NCBI RefSeq assembly: GCF_045037415.1
Contig: NZ_CP173440.1
DNA from: Escherichia coli
Lineage (GTDB): Bacteria > Pseudomonadota > Gammaproteobacteria > Enterobacterales > Enterobacteriaceae
Strand: one strand, 5' to 3'
DNA: 64,000 nucleotides
Both the position numbers and the translations under genes were made by a program. Each line of letters opens with the position of its first letter. Within the stretch, counting starts at the first letter, position 1. The notes beneath the pieces are model-generated. The model saw only the letters and a program-made list of their open reading frames with translations, ran no database searches and was not told the origin of the DNA. Of this stretch, positions 3,959 through 64,000 are shown piece by piece.

Positions 3959-4300
3959 ATGGGATTAATCAGAACAGTGGTATACGTGGGTATCATTGGA
4001 GGCATCTTTGCCTATACACAAACAAAAGATAGCCTTGAAAATATTTCGGTTCCGGATGCGGAGTTTCCATCGTCAATCTCCAGGAATAACTTTATACAAT
4101 CGACATGGGTGAACGAGCATTACACTTCACTGAAGAATGGCCCGATTGCTGACGGTATATCCAGTATTCTGGATGATGCTCAGGATATCAGGGGGTCTGT
4201 CAATAATGTTGTCATGACGGCCGGTAATGTCGATATCCAGAAGGCTATTCAGGATGCAGTGGATGAACTAGACAGCAATAGCCGTAAATCCAGTAAGTAA
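3959..4300 (+). CDS. hypothetical protein with N-terminal transmembrane helix
   Basis: ORF in an operon-like array with the Dsb genes; hydrophobic N-terminus. Confidence 0.35.
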   Translation: MGLIRTVVYVGIIGGIFAYTQTKDSLENISVPDAEFPSSISRNNFIQSTWVNEHYTSLKNGPIADGISSILDDAQDIRGSVNNVVMTAGNVDIQKAIQDAVDELDSNSRKSSK

Positions 4301-4359
4301 AATGGCTCTCAGAACCATCAGATACGCCTGTTTAAAATAAAATAACTCAGAGATAAATC

Positions 4360-5316: not shown

Positions 5317-5413
5317 ACATAGCCCTCCCTTACATAGAAATATAAGCGGAGTGTTTAATTCATTGGCAAAATTCTAGGAGTATGTATGTCGGAGGCTTTC
5401 TTGACAGTTTTCG

Positions 5414-6502
5414 TTGGTGGCGTCGTTTTTGCTGACGTTGTTAGTGTTTAGCGTCATACGAGTACGTAAATGGAAATGCGTCAAAGAAACACTAGCTATA
5501 GTATCTTTTGTATACTTACTTAACTTTATAAAAGGTTACCTGAAAATGAACACCAATGTACATCATGTCCAAGAAAATTTTTATATATCATTGCAGGATT
5601 GTATAAATAAAGAAGAGAAAACAAAAAAAACATGCATTGAGTACTGGCGACGTGAAGCTGAGAGGGCGAAGGAAGAAAGCGCAAGACGTAGAGCACTGTC
5701 TATAAAGATAATTACCGAAAAAAGCATGATTCTTGAAACGTTATTTCTAAATATACAAAAAACAAATGCGCTCAAAGAACAGTATGAAAGAAACCTGATA
5801 GCTAAATGGGGTGGCGTTATTGATGACGATAAGACAAAGGATTATGGTATATTCCTCCCTAGTTTGGAACATTTATCTGCTTATGTATCATGTGCAAAGA
5901 ACGATGAATATAGCAGGGAAGTGCTTTATAACAGACCCGAATTATCAAGGGGTATCAAGTATGACAATAGTTATTACTGCCCGCAGGAAAAAAAATTCAT
6001 CTATATGAGGAATGACAAATTTCGTCCAGATCTTGAACTTCTGACAAATCCTCCTTATCCTGATTTTTGTAAGAATTTACTTTACTTTTATGTCAGGTCA
6101 TTTTCGCTGCATCTCAAAAAAGGAGAGCCTGGGAAACCATTGGAGATAGGTATTCGCAATTCAGTGAGCAAAAACACTTATGAAGACTTGTGTATAGGTC
6201 TGGAAATACTTATGCCATACATGTGCAAAACTGAAAGCGGCAAAGTGATTATTAATGATGAAGGATACTTATCATGTGATAGCTATTATAGAAGCATACT
6301 GGTTAACCCGAAAACAGGGGGGGCTGAGTTAGTTATATACAGAAAGGGGCGCTTTGACCATCGACAGAAACCGAATACACGAGAACCTCGTAAGTGGTTG
6401 AATGAAGATATAATAATTAAAGAATTTCCTAACATACGAATTGTTTTTCTATATATCATATCGTGTCGGTATCAGCAGCACTTCAAAAACAGGGATATAT
6501 AG
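5414..6502 (+). CDS. hypothetical protein
   Basis: Long ORF in low-GC DNA; start uncertain (in-frame ATGs at 5414 and 5546). No recognisable motif. Confidence 0.3.
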   Translation: MVASFLLTLLVFSVIRVRKWKCVKETLAIVSFVYLLNFIKGYLKMNTNVHHVQENFYISLQDCINKEEKTKKTCIEYWRREAERAKEESARRRALSIKIITEKSMILETLFLNIQKTNALKEQYERNLIAKWGGVIDDDKTKDYGIFLPSLEHLSAYVSCAKNDEYSREVLYNRPELSRGIKYDNSYYCPQEKKFIYMRNDKFRPDLELLTNPPYPDFCKNLLYFYVRSFSLHLKKGEPGKPLEIGIRNSVSKNTYEDLCIGLEILMPYMCKTESGKVIINDEGYLSCDSYYRSILVNPKTGGAELVIYRKGRFDHRQKPNTREPRKWLNEDIIIKEFPNIRIVFLYIISCRYQQHFKNRDI

Positions 6503-6607
6503 TAAATGCCTCGTAAAACGTGACCCAGTGGGCATGGAGATAATGAGGTTAATAATAAATGAATTTTACATTTGAACGATGTAAATTTCACTAAACATTA
6601 AATATTT

Positions 6608-7135
6608 ATGGCGGTTTCTATGTTCGAACATAACATTGCTTTTAACGGCATGATGATTGTGATTGTTATCTTATCTTATCTGCTATTTAAAAGTCTTAAG
6701 TCAAAGAAAAGGCTTCAGCATAAGTATGATGAGGTGTTTAAGGCTTTTCATATTGCGAATTCAGAGTACACCGGCGGCCTAAAAGAAGTTTACAAAAACT
6801 TATCTTTAAGCAATGCTCAGTTGCAGTTCCTTGCTGTTTACTTAAATCAAGACACTGTCCAGTTTGATGGCAGAAATATTGTGTGCGAAAAAGAGGATGA
6901 TGTTCAGTATATTCTTTCACTTATATCAGACAGCCATTTTTGGTTGGACAAATCCATGAAAGGAATAAATGAAGTGGTAAATAATACGGACGTAATAAAA
7001 GATATTAAATTATCTCTATCACCGTTCGCTTCGTTGGGTGAGCTGAATGTTATAGATGATGAGTTTAAACTGAAAAATAAAGAGTTTGATGGGTTTGCTA
7101 AACTTAAAGTTAAGTATGATGTAAAAAGGGGGTGA
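6608..7135 (+). CDS. hypothetical membrane-anchored protein
   Basis: ORF with N-terminal hydrophobic segment; stop overlaps the start of the next ORF. Confidence 0.35.
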   Translation: MAVSMFEHNIAFNGMMIVIVILSYLLFKSLKSKKRLQHKYDEVFKAFHIANSEYTGGLKEVYKNLSLSNAQLQFLAVYLNQDTVQFDGRNIVCEKEDDVQYILSLISDSHFWLDKSMKGINEVVNNTDVIKDIKLSLSPFASLGELNVIDDEFKLKNKEFDGFAKLKVKYDVKRG

Positions 7136-7740
7136 AAATGGCAGGGGCATTGTTTTCACTTTCTGCTGGTGGGGTGATGTTTGCAACAGCTGTTGTTATT
7201 ATCATCTTTAGTGCTATGCTATATGACAGTATAGTTAAAAGACGTTCTAAAAATATTAACCCACCAGAGTTTACAGGATCACCTCAACTAGCATCTTGCA
7301 ATTGTTCAGGTGGTACTGTCCTGCTTTATCTTGATTTTGATGGAGTCCTCCATCGAAGGATGAATGAGACATTTGAAAGAATGCCTCTACTGGAAAAAAT
7401 TTTAAAACAATGTCCAGAATTACATATAGTCGTGTCCAGCAGTTGGAGGGAAACAATGACTTTAGAAGGGCTTAAATACCTTTTTCCAGTAGCATTCAGA
7501 CACAGAATAATAGGTGTTACACCTTCACTTCAGGAAGTAAAGGATACCGAATATGTTCGGTACAGAGAGTGCCTTTTACATGCCAGACATATGGGGGTCA
7601 ACAAGTTTATTATCATTGATGATGAATCACACCGTTTTCCACCTGGGTGCGAAAATCTGGTGTCAACGAATTACAGTGAGGGGATGACTGACCAAACAGT
7701 AGCATCTGTCATTATGAAATATTGTCAGTACTTAACATGA
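7132..7740 (+). CDS. membrane-anchored HAD-like hydrolase-family protein
   Basis: ATGA start/stop overlap with the upstream ORF; LYLDFDGVLH resembles HAD motif I (DxDG). Confidence 0.4.
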   Translation: MKMAGALFSLSAGGVMFATAVVIIIFSAMLYDSIVKRRSKNINPPEFTGSPQLASCNCSGGTVLLYLDFDGVLHRRMNETFERMPLLEKILKQCPELHIVVSSSWRETMTLEGLKYLFPVAFRHRIIGVTPSLQEVKDTEYVRYRECLLHARHMGVNKFIIIDDESHRFPPGCENLVSTNYSEGMTDQTVASVIMKYCQYLT

Positions 7741-8013
7741 AGGGATGAATTAAAATGTTAAATATAAGTTTTTTTTGTGGGCGATGAACAGAGAATTAAA
7801 GCCGGTTATTCAGGCAGGGCAGGAACAACCACCATGGATAATCGGCTCCCGGACATGTCCGGGCAAAGAAATCGTAGAACTAGCGCATGACAGTAAGGCG
7901 GGGTAATCGAGGCAATATCTCAACAGTACAAATGAAATAATGCGTTGCTGGGTGGGCACCGGCAGTCAGAGCCAGCGTTCTGCAGCTGCATCAAAGGCTA
8001 AGTGTACCTGCCA

Positions 8014-8670
8014 TTACTCCAGCTCATGAATCAGCATGCCAGCATGTTTAATGTTTAGAGTCGTCATGTTTGCATTAAGGTCTTTCATCATTCTGGTTCC
8101 GCCGCATCGCACATATTCTCTTAATCTTCCATTGTAGGCAGCGCTGGAAGCGATTTTAAGCTGCTTTATCGGACAGGGAAGATAAGCCACTCCTTTAACG
8201 AGATCGTCCTCAACAGCGTTCAGGTAAACGGGAGAGGCCGCAATGATAAAGATATCATGCCGGTACATACTAAACAGTTCCGCAAGGGAAGGGACTTTTC
8301 CAGGCAGTATGGGGTCAGAAGTCAGCATACCCCATATGCTGGCGCTCTTTCTTCCTATCTTTGTAAACGTAGCATCATAAGGGATCGCGGGGTCAGAACT
8401 GTGTCGTAGGCCCAGACCTGCAGAAATAACCCATAAACAGATATGAGAATTAGAGTTTGCAATAGACTTAGCTGTACTCCAGTGAGCACTACAGTATATG
8501 TTTTCCGTTTCCTTAATATCATCATTACATGTAGTGAATCGGGACTGCACAAGACTTTTCCATTGCTGATAGGCAATCTCAGTATCTGTCGTATGGTAGG
8601 GAAACACAGTGTCATGTACAGGTCCTGCTTTCTTTTTCGCGCATGTTGTAATGAGATGAATAGTCGACAT
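8014..8670 (-). CDS. hypothetical protein (gene 4 of a 4-gene minus-strand operon)
   Basis: Co-directional, tightly spaced ORF; no recognisable motif. Confidence 0.35.
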   Translation of the reverse strand: MSTIHLITTCAKKKAGPVHDTVFPYHTTDTEIAYQQWKSLVQSRFTTCNDDIKETENIYCSAHWSTAKSIANSNSHICLWVISAGLGLRHSSDPAIPYDATFTKIGRKSASIWGMLTSDPILPGKVPSLAELFSMYRHDIFIIAASPVYLNAVEDDLVKGVAYLPCPIKQLKIASSAAYNGRLREYVRCGGTRMMKDLNANMTTLNIKHAGMLIHELE

Positions 8671-50521: not shown

Positions 50522-51025
50522 TTATTGATAGTGTTTTATGTTCAGATAATGCCCGATGACTTTGTCATGCAGCTCCACCGATTTTGAGAACGACAGCGAC
50601 TTCCGTCCCAGCCGTGCCAGGTGCTGCCTCAGATTCAGGTTAAGCCGCTCAATTCGCTGCGTATATCGCTTGCTGATTACGTGCAGCTTTCCCTTCAGGC
50701 GGGATTCATACAGCGGCCAGCCATCCGTCATCCATATCACCACGTCAAAGGGTGACAGCAGGCTCATAAGACGCCCCAGCGTCGCCATAGTGCGTTCACC
50801 GAATACGTGCGCAACAACCGTCTTCCGGAGCCTGTCATACGCGTAAAACAGCCAGCGCTGGCGCGATTTAGCCCCGACATAGCCCCACTGTTCGTCCATT
50901 TCCGCGCAGACGATGACGTCACTGCCCGGCTGTATGCGCGAGGTTACCGACTGCGGCCTGAGTTTTTTAAGTGACGTAAAATCGTGTTGAGGCCAACGCC
51001 CATAATGCGGGCGGTTGCCCGACAT
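50522..51025 (-). CDS. insB: IS1 InsB
   Basis: 167-aa product matches IS1 InsB. Confidence 0.9.
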
Positions 51026-51219
51026 CCAACGCCATTCATGGCCATATCAATGATTTTCTGGTGCGTACCGGGCTGAGAAGCGGTGTAAGTGAACTGCAGT
51101 TGCCATGTTTTACGGCAGTGAGAGCAGAGATAGCGCTGATGTCCGGCAGTGCTTTTGCCGTTACGCACCACCCCGTCAGTAGCTGAACAGGAGGGACAGC
51201 TGATAGAAACAGAAGCCAC
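50944..51219 (-). CDS. insA: IS1 InsA
   Basis: 91-aa product matches IS1 InsA (…[32 protein letters not shown]…). Confidence 0.9.
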
Positions 51220-51252
51220 TGGAGCACCTCAAAAACACCATCATACACTAAA

Positions 51253-51843
51253 TCAGTAAGTTGGCAGCATCACCAACCTTATGTACCTTTTGCAGCCAAA
51301 TTTTCTTGTTATTTTGCTTTGGTAGCATGATAGCATTTTTTCTTCAATTTTTAGTTGACTTTTTATTTCATTAATGCCCCCATTTTTCAGTAGGCATTGC
51401 AGCACTGCTTGTTCCTTTTTTGTTAGCCGTGGATAATGGTTTACAATTCGGCTAACATTTTTCTTTAAGAATGCAAAATATAGTTTTTCAATATTATTTT
51501 TTACATTTCCTTGCATGTTAACATAGATGTCATAATCACACCCTTTAGGATAAAACCGCCCCCCCCCCGAAACGTCAAGCCACATCCATTGGCTTATCAT
51601 ATTTAATGATCCCCTTAACATTTTGTACCCTCCCCATTTCCCTGAATAAAAAATCCTGCTGTCAACCAATACTCTTATGTTTCTTTTGTGCTTAATTGCT
51701 ATTGATTTATTAACTACTCCTTCATATGTAATATGAAACAGAGGTAGTCCAGTTAACTGCTTTAGGCCATAATAAAAAAAATAATCATCAGTCAACACTA
51801 TGTTTACATCCTTGTTACATATAAAGTAAATATATTTTTCCAT
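51253..51843 (-). CDS. LuxR-type HTH regulator, 3' end fused to the IS1 terminus, with internal G10 tract
   Basis: C-terminal LuxR-like HTH (LTKKEQAVLQCLLKNG…KITRKFG). The last ~7 codons come from IS1. The C10 run at 51559-51568 encodes GGG within the ORF. Confidence 0.45.
   Translation of the reverse strand: MEKYIYFICNKDVNIVLTDDYFFYYGLKQLTGLPLFHITYEGVVNKSIAIKHKRNIRVLVDSRIFYSGKWGGYKMLRGSLNMISQWMWLDVSGGGRFYPKGCDYDIYVNMQGNVKNNIEKLYFAFLKKNVSRIVNHYPRLTKKEQAVLQCLLKNGGINEIKSQLKIEEKMLSCYQSKITRKFGCKRYIRLVMLPTY
51559..51568. repeat. C10 homopolymer (G10 on the coding strand) inside the LuxR-type ORF
   Basis: Ten consecutive C at 51559-51568. Confidence 0.9.
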
Positions 51844-52376
51844 AGAAACAGTAACTTTGATCCATCAATATTCATCCAAAAATATTTTATAAGCATTAAA
51901 AAAAAAAACAACAGAGAATCATTTCTCTTGAAAGTCGTTGGTTACAATTTTTAATGAATAAAAATTCAATCAATCACGGTAAATAGTCATTTTTTTTGTC
52001 TTTGCGTGTTTGCAATTAATTGATCTTTTTTTTTAACCCGCCCCCCTTTATTTTGTCAGTTTGCTTAATAATTCACGATTAAAGATGTGTGGGGAGGGGC
52101 GAGTTTAGGACTTATTTTAAAATCCTTATCAAATAAATACTTTCGCAAAAAACAATTCGCTTAGTAATACTGTCTGTTTCTATAATAACCATGGTAATTA
52201 GATTTCTGAAAAATATGTTCAGATTACCACTAGTGTAACAGTTGGTGCTTGGGAGTTATTTGGCGATTGATCCGACCACATGATCCAGGCTAAATACCCT
52301 CAAAGTAAATTAATATATTGTTCTCCTTGATATCCGGCCCATTTTTTGATTTAATTTCAAATGATAACTGTATAAG

Positions 52377-53039
52377 GTGCAATCAATGAGTAATACTGAT
52401 AACGGGACGAAGATCTACACTCCATTAACTCTGAAACTATATGACTGGTGGGTGCTTTGCATTTCGAATAGTTACGCATGGAATTGTTCAACAAAGGATA
52501 TTTTAATTCCTTATTTTTTACAAAACTTAAGTCCTAACCACCTAGATATTGGCGTTGGTACTGGTTATTATCTCACTAAAATCCCTGCTCACTATAATAT
52601 ATCCCTCATGGATCTTAACCCTGCCAGCTTGAAAGCTGCATCGGCAAGAGTAGGGGAAGATAGAATACACTATAAAGTTAGGCATGATGTATTTGAATCT
52701 TACCCAGAGGAACTTCATGGAAAATTTGATTCCATATCAATGTATTACCTCATCCATTGTCTACCAGGAACAATGGAAGATAAAAGAATTGTCATAAAAA
52801 ACGCGAAGGCCGCCTTAACTAAAGGTGGAATACTTTACGGAGCAACCATACTTGGTGATAAGGTAAGGCATAATAGTTTTGCGTTAAAACTGTTGCAAAT
52901 TTATAACAAAAAAGGTATTTTTTCTAATTTTAGTGATTCAGAAGAAGAACTAAAAAAAATGCTTTCTCATTATTTTAAAAATATTGATGTCATTGTGAAA
53001 GGTGCTGTCGCAATGTTCTCTGCGCATGGAAAAAAATAG
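52377..53039 (+). CDS. class I SAM-dependent methyltransferase
   Basis: DIGVGTGYY (motif I). Paralog of the ORF at 61472..62179. Confidence 0.55.
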   Translation: MQSMSNTDNGTKIYTPLTLKLYDWWVLCISNSYAWNCSTKDILIPYFLQNLSPNHLDIGVGTGYYLTKIPAHYNISLMDLNPASLKAASARVGEDRIHYKVRHDVFESYPEELHGKFDSISMYYLIHCLPGTMEDKRIVIKNAKAALTKGGILYGATILGDKVRHNSFALKLLQIYNKKGIFSNFSDSEEELKKMLSHYFKNIDVIVKGAVAMFSAHGKK

Positions 53040-53399
53040 CTATTTATCATTTTTTCCTGGATTTATCTTTTTTAAAAACACCTTGTGAACTGATCCCATA
53101 GTTTATATTAAGCGACTAACAGGGCTTGGGTTCGGTCCTCTACCGGACTCAGGCCTTTTTGTTTTATTCTTTCATGGTTGTAATAGTGGATGTACTCATC
53201 TATAGCCATGCGCAACTAGCTGATATTCTTATGTTCCTTCAGGTAAAAACATTCAATCTTTAGCGTACCGAAGAAGCTTTCCATTACTGCATTGTCGTGA
53301 CATTTTCTCTTTCTTGACATGCTCTGTTTCAGGCCGCTGCCCTTAAGTCGCTTCTGATAATACGCCATCTGGTAGTGCATCTAATTAGTAGAACATGTA

Positions 53400-54110
53400 T
53401 TTTTCAATGAAGGCCCCGATGACTTTTTCATGCAGCTCAACAGAGCGTGAGAAACAGACGGTCGGCGAGCCAGGCGTTTGATTCGGGTTCTCAGCGTCAG
53501 ATTGTTTCGCTCAATGCGCTGAGTAGAGATTTTGCCGGTCAGATGCTTATCCTTCGGCACCTCTCTGGCGTAACTTCCCAGTCATCGCTGGTTATTATGC
53601 TGATATTAAACGGTGTGAGCAGAGCCAGCAGCGCACTGCAGGTTGCATCGGTCCGTGGCCCAAAAGTATAGGCCAGCACACCACCTGTTTTCGTGTTGTA
53701 CGCGTACCAGAGCCAGTGCTACCGGGCTTTGCTGCCGACCTCCATTGCTCGTGGAGTTCGCAGATGAGCGCCACATCGGCATGAGCAACCGGAGATGTGG
53801 TTACTCGTCGTGGCGCGAGTTTTTTAAAGTGCGAATAACGGTGTTAATGCCGATTTTGAGTGTCCTTGCGGTATCACAGACGCCGGCTCCGTTGAATGCC
53901 ATTTCGGTAATTTTCTCTTTGACGCCGTGCTTGCGTGCTTCATAAGTATAAGTGAGCAGAAACACGCGGTAGCAATCGCGGCAGCGAAACCGGTCACGGC
54001 CTTTAGGGCTCTGCCTGTGGCGGAAAACTTGGTCAGACTGACAACGGGGGCAATGAACGGTAACGCTGGTCATGAACAAACCTCAAAAGCACGCATCATA
54101 CATCAATTCA
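53400..54110 (-). mobile_element. degraded IS1-family element (divergent isoform) next to an IS3-family fragment
   Basis: InsA-like ORF 53801..54079 (…CPRCQSDQVFRHRQSPKGRDRFRCRDC…); InsB-like region 53430-53800 is frameshifted; IS3-type OrfB piece at 53200-53400. Confidence 0.55.
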
Positions 54111-54221
54111 ATTAATTAGAGGCATTGATCTCCTCCCTGAAAACAGTGCCGTCTCCTCGCCTCGTGAGCTCACACCAACAGAAGCACCGGCAGAAATAAG
54201 AATCCCTGGTTTCTCCTGATA

Positions 54222-55651
54222 CTATTTAATAATTTCTGACAGGGCCTGACCTGCTTTCTGAATATAAACTGGTTGCGAGACCTCACCCAGCTGATTGGCA
54301 ACCATCCGGGTTTCATAATGACTGGCAGTTAATACCAGAGCTGGCCCGTGAATACAGGACAGTTGTTCAACTACTGCCTTTAACCATTGACCTGAAAATA
54401 TCTGTTCTTTCGGGTCATCGAACACCTTTGGAAAATCAGCACCGGCGATGGTCAGCTTCATTGAGCCATAGACGTCTGGGGAGAATATTTTCCTGATTGA
54501 AATCGTATCGCTGGTTAACCCCAGAGCTTTACATAACCACTCCATTCCGGTCTCTGGGGTACTGGTAATAGAGAGGGTAGCCGACGTCAGTAACGCACTA
54601 CGCCACTGAGTGCAGTATCTGCCCACATTCATCCCGATAAACGGGTTTACAGCGATCAGGGCTGGTTCACGACGTTTATTGGAAACGCCTACGCCCTTTT
54701 GCCCCCGGACAATCCGAGCATATCCCTGCTGTAGATACAGTCAAAGAAAGCTTTCCGGGCCGCTTCATTTTTTATTTTCCGCCCTACCTTTGATAAGGCG
54801 TTAAAGCTATTGTCAAACAAGGCAACCGCTGCAGGCGTACTACAAAAATGCAGATCGCCCGCTATCGAAGTCACGTCGTTCATTAACTGGTCGATGACAT
54901 GCACGCCATTACGTGGAATATGTTCATTGAACGCACTAGTCAACTCTCTGAGGTTGAAGCGCCGCTGTTTCCAGACCTCAAGCATATCTACAAAAATGTC
55001 TGCCTCATCAATAATGAGGTACATATTTTCTTTGTCACCGAGGATGCGGTGATTACACATACAGTCGACCATTACCATCGCATGGGTCGTAACAATAAAG
55101 TTAGCACTGAGAGCATTCAGGCGAATATCATCAATGTCCTGTATATCATCCCAGATGGAGTAGGTGACCATCTCTGGCGTGATCTGCGCTGGCAGTTCAC
55201 CATACTCTTCTTCAAACTCAACCAGAGGTTTTGACCAGTTAGCGAGTTTTTCAAGGACCTTAACCGTATCCAGATCGGTAAATTCGTCCATGAGTAACAG
55301 TCCACGTACTTTCTCCAGGGATACGTAATTTACTTTCCCCATAAGCCGGGAAAAAGTAACTTTTATGCCGCATTGTTCAGCTATCTGTTCAAGGAGAGGA
55401 CGATCGCTTCTGAATATCTGGTGCATCAGTGCATGAGAATTCGTGGCAATCACAAATTTTGCCTCAGGGTTTTTCAGCAGAATCAGAAGCGCCGGTACCA
55501 GATAGCCCAGCGTTTTTCCTACACCTGTTTCAGCACTAATCAGTGCAACTTTATGATCCTGAGTCAGTGCACCAGCTGCAGCCTCGATATAATCCTGTTG
55601 GACCTTACGTAACGACAATCCGGCAGACTCAAATACCGCTGATGTATTCAT
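54222..55651 (-). pseudogene. DinG/Rad3-like SF2 helicase, frameshifted and C-terminally truncated
   Basis: Walker A ETGVGKT and LIIDEAD in ORF 54689..55684; LLTSATLS in ORF 54222..54632 in a different frame. The gene ends against IS-derived DNA. Confidence 0.5.
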
Positions 55652-55653
55652 GA

Positions 55654-56220
55654 CTACTGCCCCGCCAGATGCATGAAACCGCAACCAAATACGCGTTTAG
55701 GGCCTACGCCATAAACGATTCCCACTTCAGCTTCCTGTTGATTGCTGATTATGGCGGTACCCTGTACCGTGAATACGGGTAGCGTAAAACCACGTCCAGC
55801 ATTTCCTTTGTCGATATGGACGAATTTCGGGCCACTGACGACGATTTGACCGGGTTTAAACCCAGCCTTCGCTAATTTGGTGAGGGCCAACTGATAACTA
55901 GCCTCTTCAGATGGAGCAAACTGGCGTCGGCCACGGCCTTCTGACTTTGTTCCTTTATGAAAGATGGCCATTAACGTAATGAACTTGATTTCATGGCCCT
56001 CAGAGAGAATAAGCTCTCTTTTTTTCTCCCCAGGCAACTCCAGAGCTGTAGCTGTGCGGACCAGGAGTAACGAATCATCCCCGGTACCGGGAAAAATTTT
56101 AAAAGAGTACGGCAGCTTCTCTCCCTTACGTTCCTGCATGAAAAAATCCAGGTGCTGGTGGATCTGGTAAACACTTGTGTGACGGATACGCAACCGAAAC
56201 GCATTATCGTAGTAAATCAT
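55654..56220 (-). CDS. hypothetical protein, translationally coupled upstream of the helicase gene
   Basis: 188-aa ORF; stop overlaps the probable helicase start (ATGA). Confidence 0.35.
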   Translation of the reverse strand: MIYYDNAFRLRIRHTSVYQIHQHLDFFMQERKGEKLPYSFKIFPGTGDDSLLLVRTATALELPGEKKRELILSEGHEIKFITLMAIFHKGTKSEGRGRRQFAPSEEASYQLALTKLAKAGFKPGQIVVSGPKFVHIDKGNAGRGFTLPVFTVQGTAIISNQQEAEVGIVYGVGPKRVFGCGFMHLAGQ

Positions 56221-56276
56221 GGTTATACCTTTTTCAAGAGGTGCAAAATGCTCAGGCGTTGATGGGGATCAGTCGG

Positions 56277-57332
56277 GGCTTTGTTGAATAAATAAGATTT
56301 CGTGCGAACGACCCTGTAGCTGGCTGGATTTTCAGGCAATACGCACGCTTTCTGGCATCCCAGCCTTTGTCATCCTGTTCAACGCACGCACCATGGCCAT
56401 AGCTTCCGCTACCTGACCATCGTAGTCACGCAGCGTCAGTGAATCTCCCAACAACTGCTTCATTCTGTACATTGCCGTTTCCGCTATCGAGCGACGGTTA
56501 TATTCCGTTGTCCATTTCCACCGTGCATTGCTTCCGCTCAGCCGCTGATTAGCAACGGCACGGTTGCGGTCTGCGTACTCACCGGGCCAGTAACCTGCTC
56601 CTTTTCGGGGAGGAATAAGCGCGCTGATTTTTTTGCGGCGCATTTCATCGTGACAAAGCCGTGTATCGTAAGCCCCGTCTGCCGCGGCTGCCCTGATTTT
56701 TCTGTGAGTCTGCCGGATAAGGCCCGGGAAGGCTTCTGAGTCCGTGACGTTATTCAGCGACAGGTCTGCACAGACAACTTCATGTGTGTTGCTGTCAACA
56801 GCAAGATGCAACTTTCGCCAGATACGACGGCGCTCTTTGCCGTGCTTTCTGACTTTCCATTCGCCTTCACCAAAGACCTTCAGCCCGGTGGAATCAATCA
56901 CCAGGTGTGCGATTTCACCCCGGGTGGACGTTTTGAAACTGACATTAACCGACTTTGCCCGCTTACTGACACTGGTGTAATCCGGGCAGCGCAACGGAAC
57001 GTTCATCAGGGCAAAAATGGAATCAATAAAACCCTGCGCAGCCCGCAGGGTCAGCCGGAATACGCGTTTAATCACCAGAACGGTGGTGATGGCGAGATCA
57101 GAATAGCGCTGGGGCCTTCCTCGTGATGAAGGCGTTGCCGACTCATACCAGGCCTGAATCGCCTCATCATCCAGCCAGAAAGTGAGGGAGCCACGGTTGA
57201 TGAGAGCTTTGTTGTAAGTGGACCAGTTGGTGATTCTGAACTTTTGCTTTGCCACGGAATGGTCTGAGTTGTCGGGAGGATGCGTGATCTGATCCTTCAA
57301 CTCAGCAAAAGTTCGATTTATTCAACAAAGCC
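56277..57332 (-). mobile_element. IS903 (IS5 family), 1056 bp, no target-site duplication
   Basis: Terminal inverted repeats GGCTTTGTTGAATAAAT at both ends; flanking 9-mers differ. Confidence 0.95.
56332..57300 (-). CDS. IS903 transposase
   Basis: Near-identical to IS903/IS102 transposase (…KFRITNWSTYNKALINRGSLTFWLDDEAIQAWY…). Confidence 0.95.
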   Translation of the reverse strand: MKDQITHPPDNSDHSVAKQKFRITNWSTYNKALINRGSLTFWLDDEAIQAWYESATPSSRGRPQRYSDLAITTVLVIKRVFRLTLRAAQGFIDSIFALMNVPLRCPDYTSVSKRAKSVNVSFKTSTRGEIAHLVIDSTGLKVFGEGEWKVRKHGKERRRIWRKLHLAVDSNTHEVVCADLSLNNVTDSEAFPGLIRQTHRKIRAAAADGAYDTRLCHDEMRRKKISALIPPRKGAGYWPGEYADRNRAVANQRLSGSNARWKWTTEYNRRSIAETAMYRMKQLLGDSLTLRDYDGQVAEAMAMVRALNRMTKAGMPESVRIA

Positions 57333-57543
57333 CTTTGACATGCACAATTATTGTCTGCCCAATAGTCCGATAGTTAGCCTGTTTACAAAAACTGTTGCTG
57401 GTCATACTGGTGCTTTATTCCCGGTTAAGCGGGCTAGTTAACCCAGAGTGATGAACCATCCTGGAGTGGCAGATAAAGCAGAAAGAATGGATTTGTTGCC
57501 CTGATTTTTTCCGAATCTAAATAAAGATTAGCTTAATCACTCG

Positions 57544-57561
57544 TTGTTATGTTATAACATT
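57544..57561. promoter_or_regulatory. Zur-box-like operator
   Basis: TTGTTATGTTATAACATT, the best match to the window consensus. Confidence 0.55.
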
Positions 57562-57565
57562 AAAT

Positions 57566-57817
57566 TAGCAATATTCTCAGCCAGCAGCACGGCCTGTGGG
57601 GGGCGGTTATTGAGAACGAATTCGGTGAAATCTGTATAGATGATGCATTGGTTATCAATGCAGATGAAGAAGTCTTCGAGATGAATAATGGCTGCATCTG
57701 CTGCACGGTGCGAGGAGATTTGATTCATATCCTGAGTCGTCTGATGTACCGCCGCGATAAATTTGACCGTATTCTGATCGAATTCCACCGGGATGGCCAA
57801 TCTACTGAGTGAAGCAA
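57566..57817 (+). pseudogene. COG0523 GTPase fragment (CxCC region only)
   Basis: Unannotated plus-strand frame reads …VIENEFGEICIDDALV…EEVFEMNNGCICCTVRGDL… The P-loop N-terminus and the C-terminal domain are absent. Confidence 0.5.
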
Positions 57818-57999
57818 ATGAAGAGAGAGCCGCTAACGATCCTGAATGGTTTTCTTAGTCCTAGTAAAAACATGCGGTTAAAAATTTGTTAATGCAGACA
57901 CCTCAACCACAATTTCGATGTGCGTCATCGTGAACGATTTGAGCGGACAGGATGTCGGCGGCGTCCTGATTGCCAGTATAGAAATCAAGAAGGAACACC

Positions 58000-58827
58000 A
58001 TGAAGCGCAATACCGTAAGTAATCTGACAGAAAAAGATGATTTTGATACGCTGGAAAGTATTCTCAGCGTTAATATTCATTCTCTGTTGCGGCCAGACGG
58101 CGGGACGTTGCTTTCTGACGTCCATTTTGCGGTCAAAGCAGGAGAATGTCTGGCCATTATCGGGCCTAACGGCAGCGGTAAAACTTCCCTCGTGAGAGCG
58201 ATTAGTCAGGAACTGACCCATCTAAAGGGGGACATTCTTCTGCGGGGCCGTTCTATGTCTGCTTTATCCCGTCAACAGCGAGCCCGGCTGGTTGCTGTTT
58301 TGGCCCAGAATGATACACCTGATACGAGATTATCCCTTGAGGATTATGTAGCGCTGGGGCGTATCCCTCATGCCGGGGATGTACCGCGTAATGTACATGA
58401 CGCGATTGTAGCAAATGCCATTAAAGAAACCGGATTACAACGGCTACGCAGGCGGTCACTTTTATCGCTTTCCGGCGGCGAAAGACAACGAGCGGCGCTG
58501 GCACGGGTACTGGCACAGACGCCCGACCTGGTATTGCTTGATGAACCCACCAATCATCTCGATCCTCCCGGGCGCGAGGAACTGCTTTCCCTTGTAAAAA
58601 ACAAGGGGATTGCCGTCGTGGCGGTGTTGCACGATCTGACACTGACAGAATCATTTGCTGACCGTGTTCTCCTCTTGTCGCAGGGGCAATCAGTGATCTG
58701 TGACACACCGGAGAAGGTATTGGTATCAGAATACCTTTATCCCGTTTTTGGCTTGACCAGTTTTACCGTACCGCATCCCCATACAGGAAAGGCGTTGCGT
58801 ATTTTTGAAGTTCCGCATTATGTATAA
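58000..58827 (+). CDS. ABC transporter ATP-binding protein (FecE/FhuC/BtuD-like)
   Basis: GPNGSGKTS, LSGGERQR, LLDEPT. Confidence 0.8.
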   Translation: MKRNTVSNLTEKDDFDTLESILSVNIHSLLRPDGGTLLSDVHFAVKAGECLAIIGPNGSGKTSLVRAISQELTHLKGDILLRGRSMSALSRQQRARLVAVLAQNDTPDTRLSLEDYVALGRIPHAGDVPRNVHDAIVANAIKETGLQRLRRRSLLSLSGGERQRAALARVLAQTPDLVLLDEPTNHLDPPGREELLSLVKNKGIAVVAVLHDLTLTESFADRVLLLSQGQSVICDTPEKVLVSEYLYPVFGLTSFTVPHPHTGKALRIFEVPHYV

Positions 58828-58845
58828 ATTACTTTCCGAGAGTCA

Positions 58846-59805
58846 GTGATGAAAAAATTGTTTATATCCCTGCTGTCGGTACTGTCTGCTTCAGTAGCCA
58901 GTGCTGCCGATTTTCCTGTTACTATTGAAAGTTGTGGGACTCCTGTAACATTCTCCGGCCCGCCGAAAAGGGCTGTGATCAACGACCTTAATATGGCAGA
59001 GATGGCGTTTGCACTGGATTTGCAGGATCGTATTGTTGGGCTGACCGGTATTAGTGGCTGGTACAAAATGACGCCGGAATTTAAAAAGGCGATGGGCTCG
59101 ATCCCTGAACTGGCACCCAAATATCCCACCCTGGAAACATTGCTGGCAGCCGAGCCTGATTTCTTTTTCGCTGGCTGGAACTATGGAATGAAAGTAGGCG
59201 GCGAAGTGACGCCGGATACGTTAAGCAAATATGGCATCAAGACTTTCGTTCTGAGTGAAAGCTGTGTGTTCACCACTGCGCACAAAAATAAAGCCACGAT
59301 GGATCTGCTGTATAACGATATCCTCACGCTGGGTAAGATTTTTGGCAAGCGCAATGACGCACTGTCCCTAGTCAGCGGCTGGCAAAAGAGGCTGAGTGAA
59401 CTGCCGAAGCCAGCGGCAGGTACCCGTCCTTTAAAGGTGTTCGTCTACGACTCAGGTGAGGATAAACCGTTTACCAGTGGTAAATATGCGATGCCTACGG
59501 CCATGATTGAGGCGGCTGGTGGTAAAAATGCAATGGAGGCGCTGGATACCAGTTGGGGAACGACGTCTTGGGAAAGCGTGGCCGCTACTGAGCCGGACTT
59601 CATTATTTTGTTAGATTACCAGACGGGCAGCGGTGCGGATACACTGCGTCATTTTCTTGAGAATCATCCGTTAATGAAACTGACTCCGGCTGTTCAGCAT
59701 CATCGATACCTGAAATTACAATATGCTGAACTGACGCCGGGACCAGCTAATGTTGGTGCGGTGGAAAAACTCGCGTGGGCAATGTACCCGACAGAAGCGA
59801 AGTGA
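58846..59805 (+). CDS. class III periplasmic binding protein (FecB/FhuD/BtuF-like)
   Basis: Signal peptide; size and pattern of chelate/cobalamin-type binding proteins. Confidence 0.65.
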   Translation: MMKKLFISLLSVLSASVASAADFPVTIESCGTPVTFSGPPKRAVINDLNMAEMAFALDLQDRIVGLTGISGWYKMTPEFKKAMGSIPELAPKYPTLETLLAAEPDFFFAGWNYGMKVGGEVTPDTLSKYGIKTFVLSESCVFTTAHKNKATMDLLYNDILTLGKIFGKRNDALSLVSGWQKRLSELPKPAAGTRPLKVFVYDSGEDKPFTSGKYAMPTAMIEAAGGKNAMEALDTSWGTTSWESVAATEPDFIILLDYQTGSGADTLRHFLENHPLMKLTPAVQHHRYLKLQYAELTPGPANVGAVEKLAWAMYPTEAK

Positions 59806-60809
59806 TGCTCATGTCGTACCGTTATCACTGGGTGATGTGGGGATCGATGGTCGTGCTGATTGGGTTAATGTTATTCAGCATAACCAGAGGGACAGTCTCA
59901 CTGTCGCTAATGCAGGTGCTGGGTGCACTGAAGATTGTGGATGAGCCGGTATCTGCCATGGTCAGCAGAATTGTGACGGATTTACGCGTACCGAGGATGT
60001 TGCTCTCTGTGCTGACAGGGGCGGGACTGGCAATGGTAGGGGCATTGTTACAAACTACCACCCGTAACGATCTGGCTGATCCTTTTTTATTCGGGTTATC
60101 CTCCGGTGCGTCAGCAGGAGCGGTGCTGGTGATCACCCGTTTTGGTGATCGACTAGGAGTATTAACGCTCCCCGTATCGGCGTTTGTTGGTGGTGTGTGT
60201 TCCGCCATAGCAGTAATGCTGTTATTTCATTTTAAAAAGCAACGCGGAGCTGAGCATCTAATTCTCTGCGGTCTTGCCATCTCTTTTTTGTTCGGGGCGC
60301 TGACTAGTTATTTTATTTTTTCGGGCGATCAGCGAGCCGCCAGCTCAGTGCTTTTCTGGTCACTGGGTGGCCTGGGATTAGCCACCTGGAATAATTTGCC
60401 TTTTGCAGTGTTCAGCCTGGTATTGCTGTTTGCCTTTGTCCTGTTGCGGTGGCGCTCTCTGGATGGTGTGCTGGCAGGAGAACAAACAGCGTTGTCGCTG
60501 GGGATTAACGTGAGTCGTCTGCGCATCGAGATTTTTCTTTGTTGTGCACTGGCAACATCGTTGATGGTGGCATTAACCGGCGTGATTGGATTTGTTGGCT
60601 TAATGGTGCCTCATCTGTGTCGGCATTTTGCAGGAGTTAAGCATCTGTTGTTGTTACCTCTGTGTGGCGTCTGGGGTGCAATATTACTGTGTGTCGGCGA
60701 TATAGTCAGCCGGACGATACTGGCACCACAGGAACTACCAATTGGCATTATTACGGCGGGCATTGGAGGGTTGTTTATTATCATGTTACTCGCGCGAAAC
60801 TCGCCCTAG
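59805..60809 (+). CDS. FecCD-family ABC permease
   Basis: Multi-TM protein with FecCD-like motifs; TGATG stop/start overlap with the binding-protein gene. Confidence 0.7.
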   Translation: MLMSYRYHWVMWGSMVVLIGLMLFSITRGTVSLSLMQVLGALKIVDEPVSAMVSRIVTDLRVPRMLLSVLTGAGLAMVGALLQTTTRNDLADPFLFGLSSGASAGAVLVITRFGDRLGVLTLPVSAFVGGVCSAIAVMLLFHFKKQRGAEHLILCGLAISFLFGALTSYFIFSGDQRAASSVLFWSLGGLGLATWNNLPFAVFSLVLLFAFVLLRWRSLDGVLAGEQTALSLGINVSRLRIEIFLCCALATSLMVALTGVIGFVGLMVPHLCRHFAGVKHLLLLPLCGVWGAILLCVGDIVSRTILAPQELPIGIITAGIGGLFIIMLLARNSP

Positions 60810-61129
60810 AGAATATGGGCGATTACTCGCCGGGCCTCCTGTAATTTTCAAGCGATGTTATGAAACGATGGTAATCTAACTGATGGTTTGAGCGTGCCAT
60901 GTAAGTAAAGAAGAACTGGCAAACCTTAATGTTGCATTATATCATAACAAATGATAAGTGAGGCCCAATGTTTCTCTTACTGGTCGTGCTCCCAAGCATG
61001 CCTTTGGCGAAAAGGTTAGACCTCAGGCTGCGTTCAGCAACTACATGATATCTGTCTGGATTGTGACGGAGATGCGGTACTACTGCTTGTGGTTCAAAAA
61101 GGTGAAGCCTGCCACACAAGTCGGCGGAG

Positions 61130-61552
61130 TTGTTTTTACAACGCTACCGCCGGCCTTTTCATCCGACCCGTTTCTGGCAGGTGATGGAAAATGAGCTGGA
61201 TGAAGTCGTCAGATCAAAAGGTTACTTCTGGCTGGCCAGCCGTCCGGAATTCGCAGGTTCATGGTCACAGGCTGGTGGCATTGCGCGCCAGGCGCTGGGG
61301 GGCATGTGGTGGGCGAGTGTGCCGAAAGAACGTTGGCTAGAGGATGCTGAGTCACTGAAGTTCATCATGTCTAACTGGATAGATGGCATTGGTGATGCCC
61401 GTCAGGAACTCGTTTTTATTGGAATGGATATGAATGAATCAAAACTGCGCAACAGACTGGATTCCGCCCTGTTAACGGATGCAGAAATGGCTGAAGGGCC
61501 TCAAAATTGGCGGCATTATCCCGATCCTGTTGAGCCTTGGTTCGAAGAATGA
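61130..61552 (+). pseudogene. C-terminal fragment of a COG0523 gene (about 95% identical to the C-terminus of the 30714..31937 product)
   Basis: …[18 protein letters not shown]…PVEPWFEE aligns to the C-terminus of the 30714..31937 protein; no N-terminal GTPase domain. Confidence 0.6.
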
Positions 61553-62179
61553 ATCGAAGGCACCCGTATTTGTCGGGTGCCTTCGTATGAGGGCGAAAAA
61601 GGGGCCATTTTTTAGCCCTTCTTCAGAATCACTCATATTAGAAAAAATACCTTTGTGATTATAAATCCTCATTAGTTTTGATGTGAAACTATTATGCATT
61701 ACCCCATCGCCAAGTATGGTTGCCCCGTAAAGTATTCCGTCCTTAGTTAAAGCAGCTTTCACGTTTTTTATGACAACACCTTTATCCACCATCGCCCCAG
61801 GAAGACAATGTAAGAGATAATACATTGATATAGAATCGAATTTACCATGTAGTTCCTCTGGATAAGATTCAAATACATTATGCTGAACTTCATACCGTAT
61901 TCTGGCTTTCCCTATCCTTGCTGATGCCGTTTTCAAACTAGCCTTATTGAGATCCATAAGTGAGATATTGTAATTTGCAGGAGCTTTGGCAAGATAATAC
62001 CCAGTTCCAACGCCAATATCTAAATGGTTAGGTCTTAAATTTTGTAAAAAATAAGGGAGCAAAATCTCTTTTGTCGGACAATGCCAAGCGTAACTGTTGG
62101 AAATGCTCAGCACCCACCAGTCATAAAGCTTCAAAGTGAATGGTGTGTAGATCTTCGTTCCTTCATCAACATTACTCAT
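61472..62179 (-). CDS. class I SAM-dependent methyltransferase paralog; 3' end altered by a junction with the COG0523 fragment
   Basis: Matches the 52377..53039 product for about 190 aa (…DIGVGTGYY…) and then diverges into sequence antisense to the COG0523 fragment. Confidence 0.45.
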   Translation of the reverse strand: MSNVDEGTKIYTPFTLKLYDWWVLSISNSYAWHCPTKEILLPYFLQNLRPNHLDIGVGTGYYLAKAPANYNISLMDLNKASLKTASARIGKARIRYEVQHNVFESYPEELHGKFDSISMYYLLHCLPGAMVDKGVVIKNVKAALTKDGILYGATILGDGVMHNSFTSKLMRIYNHKGIFSNMSDSEEGLKNGPFFALIRRHPTNTGAFDSFFEPRLNRIGIMPPILRPFSHFCIR

Positions 62180-62404
62180 TAGTTATACCTTGCAACAGTC
62201 AATGTGGATAAGCAGAGCATATAGCAATATGCTCAATATCTCCTTTCTATTTTATCACGATTTTTTCCACTACTTACCAAGATTTACAACAAACAACATA
62301 TTATTGCAATGCATTGCCATTTTGTTCACATACTTGGCAATTTATAAGTATATTGCATAAATATAAAGTTGACTTTTAGAGTTCTTTTTTGTAGATAAAC
62401 TCTC

Positions 62405-62540
62405 ATGGAAATATGGAAATATGGAAATATGGAAATATGGAAATATGGAAATATGGAAATATGGAAATATGGAAATATGGAAATATGGAAATATGGAAAT
62501 ATGGAAATATGGAAATATGGAAATATGGAAATATGGAAAT
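62405..62540. repeat. 17 perfect tandem copies of the 8-bp unit ATGGAAAT
   Basis: 136 bp of uninterrupted ATGGAAAT repeats in the intergenic region. Confidence 0.95.
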
Positions 62541-62665
62541 GAGGTAAGAAACAGAAGACTATAAAATTTGAAGTCAAAAATGGTAACTGAGCTCCTCCTC
62601 GTTTGGGTGCTTAGGAGATATAACTAGTGGAGAATGAAATATAACTATTACTGCAAAATAACCTG

Positions 62666-63865
62666 TTAAGCCAGCCGGGCCACTTTCGTGGGCCAGGGAT
62701 CGTGGAAAATCCCCCCCTGCTGCCACCAGAGAATTTCCTCTTCAGTGAGTAAACACTGGCGCAATGCGAGGGCAAAATCGTCAATTTCGCCGCTCTCGCC
62801 AATAACAGTCAGGCGGCAGCGCCGGTCACCAAATCTGCCCGGCATTTTTGCCAGTTGCTGACGGATAGCTGCGCGTTCTTCCTTTGTCAATGAATTATCA
62901 GTGTGAGTCAGGACCCCGGCTTTCCAGTAGCTTATGAATTCGAGATTGATGCTCCCTGCTGCCTGGTTCCACAATAATGCCAGGTCATCCCTTCCCGGTA
63001 GCCAGAAAAAACCCTTGCTGCGGTAAACGCCTGCGCCCATGAAGCGATGGCAGGTATCCCACAGCCGCTGCGGATGAAATGGGCGGTCATCCTCAATGAC
63101 CCGCCACGAAATATCATATTTTTTGTCGGGTTCATCCGACAAAACTGCATCAATTGCATCCTGAAGCTCATCGATAAGTAACGCCACCCGATGAAAATCG
63201 TAATCCGGCATGGAAAGCAATTCATCCAGCTGTAAATTTCCCCAGGGCACGGCCATAATTGCAACCTGCGGATTAAGGGGATGTATGGCTCTGGCTACCT
63301 CAGTAACAACATAGAAGGGTAATCTGTCGTTTTTGGTTAACAAGAGCTTATTACAGAACATAATCTGTTCTGCCAGCAGGCTTTCCACTCCCCGGGTCCC
63401 TCTGTTGAGGTGCTCCTGGAAAACCGGAATAAGTTTCTTTCCACCGTCGTAGTCATCATTAAGCATGACCGTATCTACAAGCGACAAAAATGCTTTAAGA
63501 CTTACCTGGGGGTGTTCTCGCAGATAGCGGACCAGGGGAAGAGGATGGCTGCTGCCTGACGTTTCCAGTAAAATAAAATCCGGAGACCGTTTTTCGAGCA
63601 GGTTTTTCAGCGCGGAATCCAGCTTCTGGATCCCACTTCTGCTGCTGATACTGTCTGCTGAAATACTCACAAAATTGTTACTGGCTGCATCAACGATTTC
63701 TGTGTTGGCTATCAGGACGCCATCCACATCAAGTTCACTCATGTCATTAACGATGACGGATACAGCCATTCGCCGTTTGTGTGCCTGTGTAAGAAGGTTT
63801 TTTAGCAGAGTAGTTTTTCCTGCTCCCAGAAAACCATTAAGGATAATGAGCGGTGTTCTTTTCAT
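62666..63865 (-). CDS. second copy of the SxSA-type COG0523 GTPase paralog
   Basis: Protein differs from the 24372..25571 product at only a handful of positions; DNA identity begins right after the stop codon (24357 / 62652). Confidence 0.8.
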   Translation of the reverse strand: MKRTPLIILNGFLGAGKTTLLKNLLTQAHKRRMAVSVIVNDMSELDVDGVLIANTEIVDAASNNFVSISADSISSRSGIQKLDSALKNLLEKRSPDFILLETSGSSHPLPLVRYLREHPQVSLKAFLSLVDTVMLNDDYDGGKKLIPVFQEHLNRGTRGVESLLAEQIMFCNKLLLTKNDRLPFYVVTEVARAIHPLNPQVAIMAVPWGNLQLDELLSMPDYDFHRVALLIDELQDAIDAVLSDEPDKKYDISWRVIEDDRPFHPQRLWDTCHRFMGAGVYRSKGFFWLPGRDDLALLWNQAAGSINLEFISYWKAGVLTHTDNSLTKEERAAIRQQLAKMPGRFGDRRCRLTVIGESGEIDDFALALRQCLLTEEEILWWQQGGIFHDPWPTKVARLA

Positions 63866-63961
63866 AGCATCCAGCCTTATGCCGCTAAACGTTAATGCAA
63901 TCAAGTTGCAATAATACCGGCTTCCTGCCAGAATTCAAATGACATGACTCGGAGGGGGAAA

Positions 63962-64000
63962 TATGGCAACACCAGTAGCCAAAACGTATGACTGGAAGCA
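63962..64000 (+). CDS. zur: second copy of the Zur-like regulator gene, 5' end only (runs off the window)
   Basis: ATGGCAACACCAGTAGCCAAAACGTATGACTGGAAGCA matches the start of the 25669 gene with one substitution. Confidence 0.55.

Follow-up and report, generated by a model that had tools for sequence, protein, structure and literature searches.

The window, a stretch of 64,000 nucleotides of Escherichia coli DNA (NCBI RefSeq assembly GCF_045037415.1, contig NZ_CP173440.1), carries two homologous genes for S-adenosylmethionine (SAM)-dependent methyltransferases, called copy 1 and copy 2 here, the second of which has an array of 8-bp repeats in its upstream region. The 13 kb around both genes recur with 100% identity in many IncHI1B/IncFIB virulence plasmids of Klebsiella pneumoniae, those of the pLVPK/pK2044 type, and in E. 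coli transconjugants bearing such plasmids, and the window is, judging by its sequence, a K. pneumoniae pLVPK/pK2044-type hypervirulence plasmid. The annotated order of the region is iroN, peg-344, rmpC, rmpD, rmpA, the first methyltransferase, fragments of the insertion sequences (IS) IS3' and IS1', helicase and CasE fragments and IS5, followed by a GTP-binding pseudogene, an ABC transporter (ATPase, binding protein and permease), the hisI' pseudogene and another GTP-binding pseudogene, and then by copy 2, a GTP-binding protein, a hypothetical protein, a lysozyme inhibitor and def. The main features of the two genes are the following:

52386..53039, plus strand: copy 1, an intact methyltransferase gene of 217 amino acids (WP_011251259.1; BAH65943.1 in pK2044), found as an open reading frame (ORF), as a coding sequence (CDS) of the NCBI annotation pipeline PGAP, and by Pfam, phrog_2132 and AlphaFold2 (AF2)
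52374..52379, plus strand: AAGGTG ribosome-binding site of copy 1, from the start of the BLASTN alignment and the sequence
61472..62179, minus strand: copy 2, an ORF of 235 amino acids, in the ORF list and a PGAP CDS
61608..62179, minus strand: native part of copy 2, codons 1-190, from BLASTP and BLASTN, 187/190 identical to WP_032448298.1
61472..61607, minus strand: new tail of copy 2, 45 codons with no family homology, from the family comparison, the junction sequence and AF2
61607..61608, no strand: junction of a 239-bp deletion (4170-4408 of the intact locus L015), from base-level comparison with L015
62405..62540, no strand: variable-number tandem repeat (VNTR), ATGGAAAT x17 with 100% matches, from Tandem Repeats Finder (TRF)

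The two proteins align without gaps and share 153 of 190 residues (81%, E=7e-117, BLASTP), and their genes match in one ungapped BLASTN segment (470 of 584 positions, 80.5%), which pairs 52374-52957 with 62191-61608 of the minus strand. This DNA homology opens at the AAGGT ribosome-binding site, about 12 nt 5' of the ATG, and breaks off abruptly at 61608, where it ends in ...CTAAAAAA. A BLASTN comparison of the two regions finds no upstream or downstream flanks common to both copies. The Nei-Gojobori method, applied to the 190 shared codons, gives dS=0.91, dN=0.11 and dN/dS=0.12 for synonymous (dS) and nonsynonymous (dN) divergence, and because of this high dS and low dN/dS the copies are read as two old, separate lineages, which would have split long ago and both evolved under purifying selection. 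They are nevertheless each other's nearest relatives, with 80-81% identity, while none of about 135 family representatives exceeds 72%. The GC content is 35% and 37% in the two copies and 33% in rmpA, and 49-50% in the adjoining ABC transporter and COG0523 genes. The sequences suggest that the copies arrived on different modules, copy 1 with the rmp module and copy 2 with a zinc-starvation island.

The original prediction, which was made from the sequence alone, placed paralogous genes at 52377..53039 and 61472..62179, homologous over about 190 amino acids. Both ORFs are there and the homology holds over that length; copy 1 more probably starts with the ATG at 52386, which PGAP also chooses and whose equivalent is used by copy 2, than with the GTG at 52377. 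A recent in-plasmid duplication is ruled out by the dS of 0.91, the unshared flanks and the different modules.

The end of copy 2 is explained by an intact locus. When the upstream spacer of copy 2 is used as a DNA query, a second set of Klebsiella plasmids is found, which have a shorter span and an intact methyltransferase locus; at the protein level this orthologue is hidden within a 90%-identity cluster represented by the 235-aa form. One such plasmid, NZ_CP047635.1 (L015), carries the ABC transporter, a full-length zigA and, convergent with it, a full-length methyltransferase of 217 amino acids (WP_032448298.1), which is identical to copy 2 in 187 of 190 residues and has a family-type C-terminus. 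Base-level comparison with this locus resolves the missing sequence into three deletions. Deletion A removed 239 bp (L015 4170-4408), a 157-bp piece of spacer together with the final 27 codons and the stop of copy 2; one of its ends lies within an A8 tract of the gene (L015 4407..4414) and its junction in the window is 61607/61608. Deletion B removed 901 bp (L015 2808-3708) with the zigA promoter and about 273 codons, and has its junction at 61146/61147. Deletion C removed about 3 kb (L015 ~5314-8300), which held an FMN-dependent alpha-hydroxy-acid oxidase, DoxX and neighbouring sequence, with a junction near 62640. The replaced 3' end at a COG0523 fragment, which had been proposed for the second gene, is thus the product of deletion A. 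Two further features lie on the far side of its junction:

61555..61585, no strand: GC-rich hairpin, the zigA terminator, readable on both strands and within the extended frame of copy 2, from the sequence
61147..61552, plus strand: zigA' pseudogene, ~134 codons from the C-terminal end of a COG0523 GTPase of the ZigA type, from CobW_C, the ZigA model and the PGAP pseudogene call

The zigA' fragment matches CobW_C (E=2.7e-21) and positions 257-389 of the ZigA model. After deletion A the frame of copy 2 continues for 45 codons through the zigA 3' flank, the terminator hairpin and the antisense of the last zigA codons, and this tail overlaps the ORF 61130..61552 of the COG0523/ZigA C-terminal fragment on the opposite strand. 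While the last 27 residues of copy 1 match 81 of 120 family members, the 45-residue tail of copy 2 matches only its own cluster. Transcripts that end at the internal hairpin would be without a stop codon.

In PLSDB, 77 records have the intact locus (901-bp span) and about 530 have the identical deletion (662-bp span), pLVPK NC_005249.1 included; therefore the truncation is ancestral to this virulence-plasmid lineage and fixed in it. The AF2 model of copy 2 has a confident core to about residue 190, ends without strands b6-b7, and has a predicted local distance difference test score (pLDDT) below 50 for residues 202-226; it does not form the seven-stranded sheet with its C-terminal b6-b7 hairpin. 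With an intact orthologue at hand, a conserved structural segment gone and the lesion mapped to the base, copy 2 has what is expected of a gene truncated at its 3' end. From its sequence it is best read as a truncated pseudogene, the PGAP CDS notwithstanding, and from its model it is most likely an inactive relic.

The 8-bp array announced for the upstream region of the second gene is present as 17 exact units that start 226 bp upstream of the copy 2 ATG. Among four loci compared, the window and pKp2449-vir-tra (L003) have 17 copies each and the loci L001 and L002 have 12 each. Flank-to-flank spans taken from 60 PLSDB records, sampled evenly, differ by exact multiples of 8 bp, which corresponds to about 3-25 copies with a mode of about 12-13, so the repeat number varies between isolates, as in phase-variable loci. 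In L015 a single ATGGAAAT unit is present, at 5206-5213; the spacer that holds it separates the divergent methyltransferase and FMN_dh genes. About 77 bp separate the array from the only promoter-like match of copy 2, which lies downstream of it. No credible ORF covers the array; an 83-aa "ORF" across it is an artefact, produced by the 24-bp super-period. In the 25-copy allele (H31) PGAP annotates a "hypothetical protein" over the array. The array is probably a neutral VNTR, driven by slippage and expanded from a single 8-mer. A literature search finds no publications that mention it.

Copy 1 is complete and belongs to a recognizable family. The call of a SAM-dependent methyltransferase, for which a profile search had been advised, is borne out by Pfam Methyltransf_12 (49.4 bits for copy 1 and 40.0 for copy 2, cutoff 30), and by Methyltransf_25, _23 and _11, which are likewise over their Pfam cutoffs. 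Copy 1 also covers the phrog_2132 profile at full length (residues 2-217 on positions 3-218 of 218, E=2.7e-97). The SAM motif I LDIGVGTGYY is found in both copies. Across 39 family sequences D54, G56, G58 and G60 of this motif are invariant, as are D76, H100-D101, the residues Y11, Y19, D20, W21-W22, W32 and C34 of an aromatic N-terminal lid, H124-C125 after strand b4, and a family-specific set formed by H162-N163, Y173-N174-K176-G177 and D184. The AF2 model of copy 1, made with the 39-sequence alignment, has a pLDDT of 90.6 and a predicted template-modelling score (pTM) of 0.88; it shows the complete seven-strand class I fold with its C-terminal b6-b7 hairpin, whose strands are the last two of the model (197-205 and 208-216).

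The family has about 900 homologues at E<=1e-5, mostly of about 218 amino acids, in Enterobacterales and in some Pasteurellaceae, Aeromonas and Acinetobacter. Its gene always stands alone, with spacers of its own and without conserved neighbours; it is chromosomal in Enterobacter, Morganella and Salmonella, lies in an island resembling an integrative and conjugative element (ICE) in Yersinia, and stands in E. coli at the end of a lambdoid prophage beside a tail-fibre assembly gene. The gene neighbourhood was rejected as a guide to function, as the contexts differ across Enterobacter, E. coli, Morganella, Salmonella and Yersinia. The closest described group is the phrog_2132 or YbcY-like family: copy 1 shares 65% identity with genes carried by 15 temperate E. 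coli phages and with cluster P0027, the E. coli homologue that itself matches phrog_2132 with E=3.2e-156, RAST labels copy 1 "YbcY", and the length of about 218 amino acids and the single-gene layout are the same. Here, however, the genes are borne by a plasmid, in an rmp module and a zinc island rather than a prophage, and copy 2 is truncated. The YbcY-like family itself is without an assigned function, and a literature search for ybcY gives no matches.

Structural comparison relates copy 1 to small-molecule methyltransferases, which make up all of its fold neighbours; the nearest are carboxyl O- and amine N-methyltransferases, such as CysG/BelI, juvenile hormone acid O-methyltransferase (JHAMT), PmtA and PfPMT. 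PmtA (PDB 8ys9) is the top Foldseek match (E=5e-12, TM 0.62), with a similar size and hydrophobic N-terminal lid helices in both proteins. Membership of the PmtA family (NF045882) was rejected, with 20.9 and 20.7 bits for the two copies vs an NCBIfam cutoff of 390. The insect JHAMT (PDB 7ebs / 7ec0) is the best PDB sequence match (profile E=4.8e-6, phmmer E=7e-4) and shares the SAM-binding core and b4, but only residues 42-152 align and the substrate-binding regions are unrelated. CysG and BelI, carboxyl O-methyltransferases that depend on a metal, have the residues Asp77, Asp102, His122-His123 and Asp191 (PMC11408123). These residues of the 3-isopropylmalate enzymes (PDB 9g0k / 9fce) nearly match D76, D101, H124-C125 and D184 of copy 1, by sequence position only. 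The likeness has its limits: the identity is 17-19%, H-C stands in place of the H-H of their His-His-Asp metal-binding motif, no beta-lactone biosynthetic cluster is nearby, no equivalent of the arginine that binds the substrate carboxylate was identified in copy 1, and many unrelated methyltransferases score nearly as well. A role in anti-phage defence was considered and rejected, as PADLOC gives only a weak partial match for copy 1 (mad2, E=3e-7) and none for the E. coli homologue.

Copy 1 is taken to be a stand-alone small-molecule methyltransferase. It is likely to be active, and its substrate is probably a small metabolite rather than a macromolecule. The original prediction left the function unknown, and this stands at the level of the substrate.

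Two further features belong to the copy 1 locus:

52952..52959, plus strand: A8 homopolymer tract in codons 189-192 of copy 1 (CTA AAA AAA ATG), slippage-prone, from the A9 allele in plasmid pPM27_Vir (L020)
53121..53157, plus strand: terminator-like hairpin with 16 pairs and a T-run, 82 bp past the copy 1 stop, from the sequence

Copy 1 is found in 463 PLSDB records, 442 of them at >=99% identity, and always adjoins rmpA/rmpD/rmpC/peg-344, even where the module is chromosomal. It is transcribed divergently from rmpA, with a 542-bp region between the two genes. In most of the sampled PLSDB records the span of the copy 1 locus is 1002 and not 1001 bp, which is presumably the same difference as a 1-bp length change at 53073 of the window; there pKp2449-vir-tra has an extra A in a T6/A5 tract 3' of copy 1, between the gene and the terminator hairpin.

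Copy 1 has been published as a marker of hypervirulent K. pneumoniae (hvKp) under the name "putative SAM-dependent methyltransferase" (PMC5126061, PMC9372168, PMC9846069), and is linked in these papers to liver-abscess, hypermucoviscous or liver-invasive isolates as a marker only, without a functional test (PMC5126061, PMC9846069, PMC9372168). A literature search, which was also made by protein accession, finds only such marker lists and no functional study of copy 1. The hvKp marker peg-589 was considered as a name for copy 1 and is not used, as no paper was found that ties peg-589 to a methyltransferase and one calls it metabolite transport.

The surroundings of copy 2 are those of a larger island. 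In six further loci the intact copy 2 orthologue always lies in the same island, whose order is a Fur-family repressor, COG0523, FolE2 (GCHY-1), DoxX, FMN_dh, the methyltransferase, ZigA, a HisI fragment, a FecCD/binding-protein/ATPase transporter and a cobW fragment, a set of genes typical of zinc starvation, as known from Zur regulons. Other Klebsiella plasmids, and one chromosome, carry the island in its intact form. Positions 57300..64000 of the window, compared with L015 and a further island locus (L021), are a decayed version of it, from which FolE2, the oxidase, DoxX and the 5' part of zigA are gone by simple deletions. One of its GTPase genes remains whole:

62666..63865, minus strand: intact COG0523 GTPase (WP_004902162.1), upstream of the VNTR, from the ORF, profile matches and PGAP

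This COG0523 gene is island context and stands outside the methyltransferase unit. Zur-box-like palindromes of the TGTTATGTTATAACA type occur 14 times in the window at <=2 mismatches vs 1.8 expected, and the sites include 24332, 27622, 32395, 36538, 57545 and 60935. Within the island they sit only upstream of the hisI'-zigA and cobW'-ABC operons; in the window the two sites close to the copy 2 region, 57545 and 60935, precede the cobW'-ABC operon and the hisI'-zigA' remnants. No such palindrome lies near either copy at <=2 mismatches, and none is found in the upstream spacer of the intact orthologue even at 4 mismatches. A search with the 19-bp Fur consensus finds no box upstream of copy 2 and, upstream of copy 1, a best match with 7 mismatches. 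Zur or Fur control of either copy was rejected, as no boxes were found. The segment DoxX-FMN_dh-methyltransferase has a GC content of 37-44% vs 49-51% for the island. With no boxes in the methyltransferase spacer and this lower GC, the zinc link is therefore positional.

The reading that best joins these findings, with a probability of roughly 80%, is that two methyltransferases of one family sit on separate modules, that copy 1 is intact and likely active, that copy 2 is a relic and that the array is a neutral VNTR. The phrog_2132-type family spreads as single-gene cargo at prophage ends, in ICEs and on plasmids of Enterobacterales, and the two copies, after a long divergence under purifying selection, would have entered the virulence plasmid separately. 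The AT-rich peg-344-rmpCDA module would have brought copy 1, which stayed intact with its own terminator and whose product most likely uses the DIGVGTG loop, D76 and D101 to bind SAM and methylates a small metabolite. The zinc-starvation island would have brought copy 2. In the virulence-plasmid lineage it decayed through the three simple deletions, of which the 239-bp one took the last 27 codons with b6-b7 and fused the frame to antisense zigA, as the comparison with L015 shows. The array probably expanded by slippage from one unit after the deletion of the neighbouring gene.

Several points weigh against this reading or soften it. On the side of copy 1, pPM27_Vir, which has a divergent rmp lineage, carries, around position 5853 of L020, A9 in place of A8, which frameshifts the gene to 197 amino acids, and no consensus promoter above chance is found upstream of the gene. 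On the side of copy 2, the frame is open, every invariant residue to D184 is kept and PGAP calls a CDS; AF2 confidence is no measure of stability, and copy 2 might still bind SAM or have a new function. Copy 2 differs from its intact orthologue by 3 nonsynonymous changes and 1 synonymous change, a ratio that is compatible with relaxed constraint and comes from counts too few for proof. No transcript, protein or activity data for either copy were found in the literature.

If the open frame of copy 2 were more than a leftover, its 190-residue core and new 45-residue C-terminus would fold together and act as an altered methyltransferase or a SAM-binding protein, retained for that function. Its identity in hundreds of plasmids could be taken for such retention but reflects recent clonal spread and not selection, and the kept residues, the PGAP CDS and a high-confidence AF2 core with a short strand at residues 229-234 have to be set against the missing edge strands b6-b7, the missing conserved segment G206/V208/A209/F211 and a tail of antisense and terminator sequence with pLDDT <50. 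The hairpin inside the ORF would moreover tend to give non-stop transcripts, the surrounding island bears two more deletions and several pseudogenes, and an intact orthologue with the family-type C-terminus survives elsewhere; a functional copy 2 is quite improbable. Still less probable is a methyltransferase that works in the zinc-starvation (Zur) response, co-regulated with ZigA/COG0523 and methylating, for example, a metallophore or a metal-related metabolite. The gene converges on zigA instead of sharing an operon with it, its spacer has no box at <=4 mismatches while the boxes stand upstream of hisI'-zigA and cobW'-ABC, its GC of 37% vs 49-51% in the island genes suggests a separate insertion, and homologues elsewhere are without COG0523 or zinc-related neighbours. 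These points count for more than the constant place of the intact orthologue between zigA and FMN_dh/DoxX, the enrichment of Zur-box-like palindromes in the window, the metal dependence of some structural neighbours (CysG/BelI and SgvM) and the family-invariant C34, H124, C125 and H162.

Copy 1 could also be a functional accessory of the rmp/peg-344 module, co-regulated through the 542-bp divergent promoter region, whose product modifies a metabolite linked to capsule, mucoviscosity or PEG344. Its invariable place beside rmpA and peg-344, chromosomal modules included, its orientation divergent from rmpA and its statistical association with liver-abscess, hypermucoviscous and liver-invasive isolates fit such a role, and between rmp lineages its coding sequence has changed less than the region before it (in pPM27_Vir, 6 substitutions in 654 bp of coding sequence vs 14 in 286 bp upstream). 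The hvKp association, however, follows from the physical linkage of copy 1 to rmp and peg-344, and pPM27_Vir keeps rmpA, rmpC and peg-344 despite its frameshifted copy 1. As the gene is frameshifted in at least this one rmp-positive plasmid, it is therefore dispensable for carrying rmp. In the window, conversely, copy 1 is intact while rmpA is truncated and rmpD deleted, family members elsewhere are without rmp-like neighbours, and the literature holds no functional study of such a role, which is unlikely. A bolder form of the same idea makes copy 1 a working peg-344-rmpADC accessory, possibly a metal-dependent carboxyl or amine methylase that aids hypermucoviscosity, PEG344 metabolite traffic or survival in the host, and slippage at the A8 tract would turn it on and off, as at the poly-G tracts of rmpA/rmpA2 on the same plasmid. 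The A8 tract resembles these poly-G frameshifts in its A9 frameshift and in being, in copy 2, a deletion endpoint; unlike them, it gives no evidence of reversible switching or of selection as a contingency locus, and this form is improbable.

The rmp locus of the window has itself been altered. The 3' end of rmpA is cut off by IS1 (50522..51843, junction 51274/51275): the product terminates in the IS1-derived ...LVMLPTY*, and the match to plasmids with intact rmpA ends at 51274/51275. The window is without the 839 bp that carry rmpD and the 3' end of rmpA in L001, and rmpC and peg-344 are also not at this position (50522..51843), so this plasmid variant should, by its sequence, be without a functional rmpADC locus here. 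In pKp2449-vir-tra, which is otherwise near-identical to the window, PGAP marks rmpA (2937..3568 of L003) as frameshifted, and in translation the frame is lost past a GGG run; this is an inactivation route distinct from the IS1 truncation in the window. Between the IS remnants and IS5, at 54222..56220, lie fragments of a DEAD/DinG-like helicase and of a type I-E CasE (Cas6e), near which the ORF list and the annotation note no CRISPR array.

The two-copy arrangement is an ordinary mosaic-plasmid history, in which an intact rmp-linked cargo gene and a truncated relative in a decayed zinc island have come to stand on one plasmid. New here are the exact deletion, the existence of an ancestor locus that is still intact, the part played by the A8 tract, and the polymorphism of the VNTR. 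The main gain is a tidier annotation: the "intact" 235-aa methyltransferase of RefSeq would be a relic, truncated at its 3' end and fixed, and its surroundings a decayed zinc island whose intact form is found on other Klebsiella plasmids. Marker lists from pan-genome or genome-wide association studies that name a "SAM-dependent methyltransferase" should keep the two genes apart, and a signal from copy 1 would reflect linkage to rmp and peg-344. With its range of about 3-25 copies, the 8-bp VNTR might allow virulence plasmids to be subtyped cheaply. The phrog_2132 family is widespread single-gene cargo of mobile elements, and copy 1 is a reasonable candidate of low priority in hvKp.

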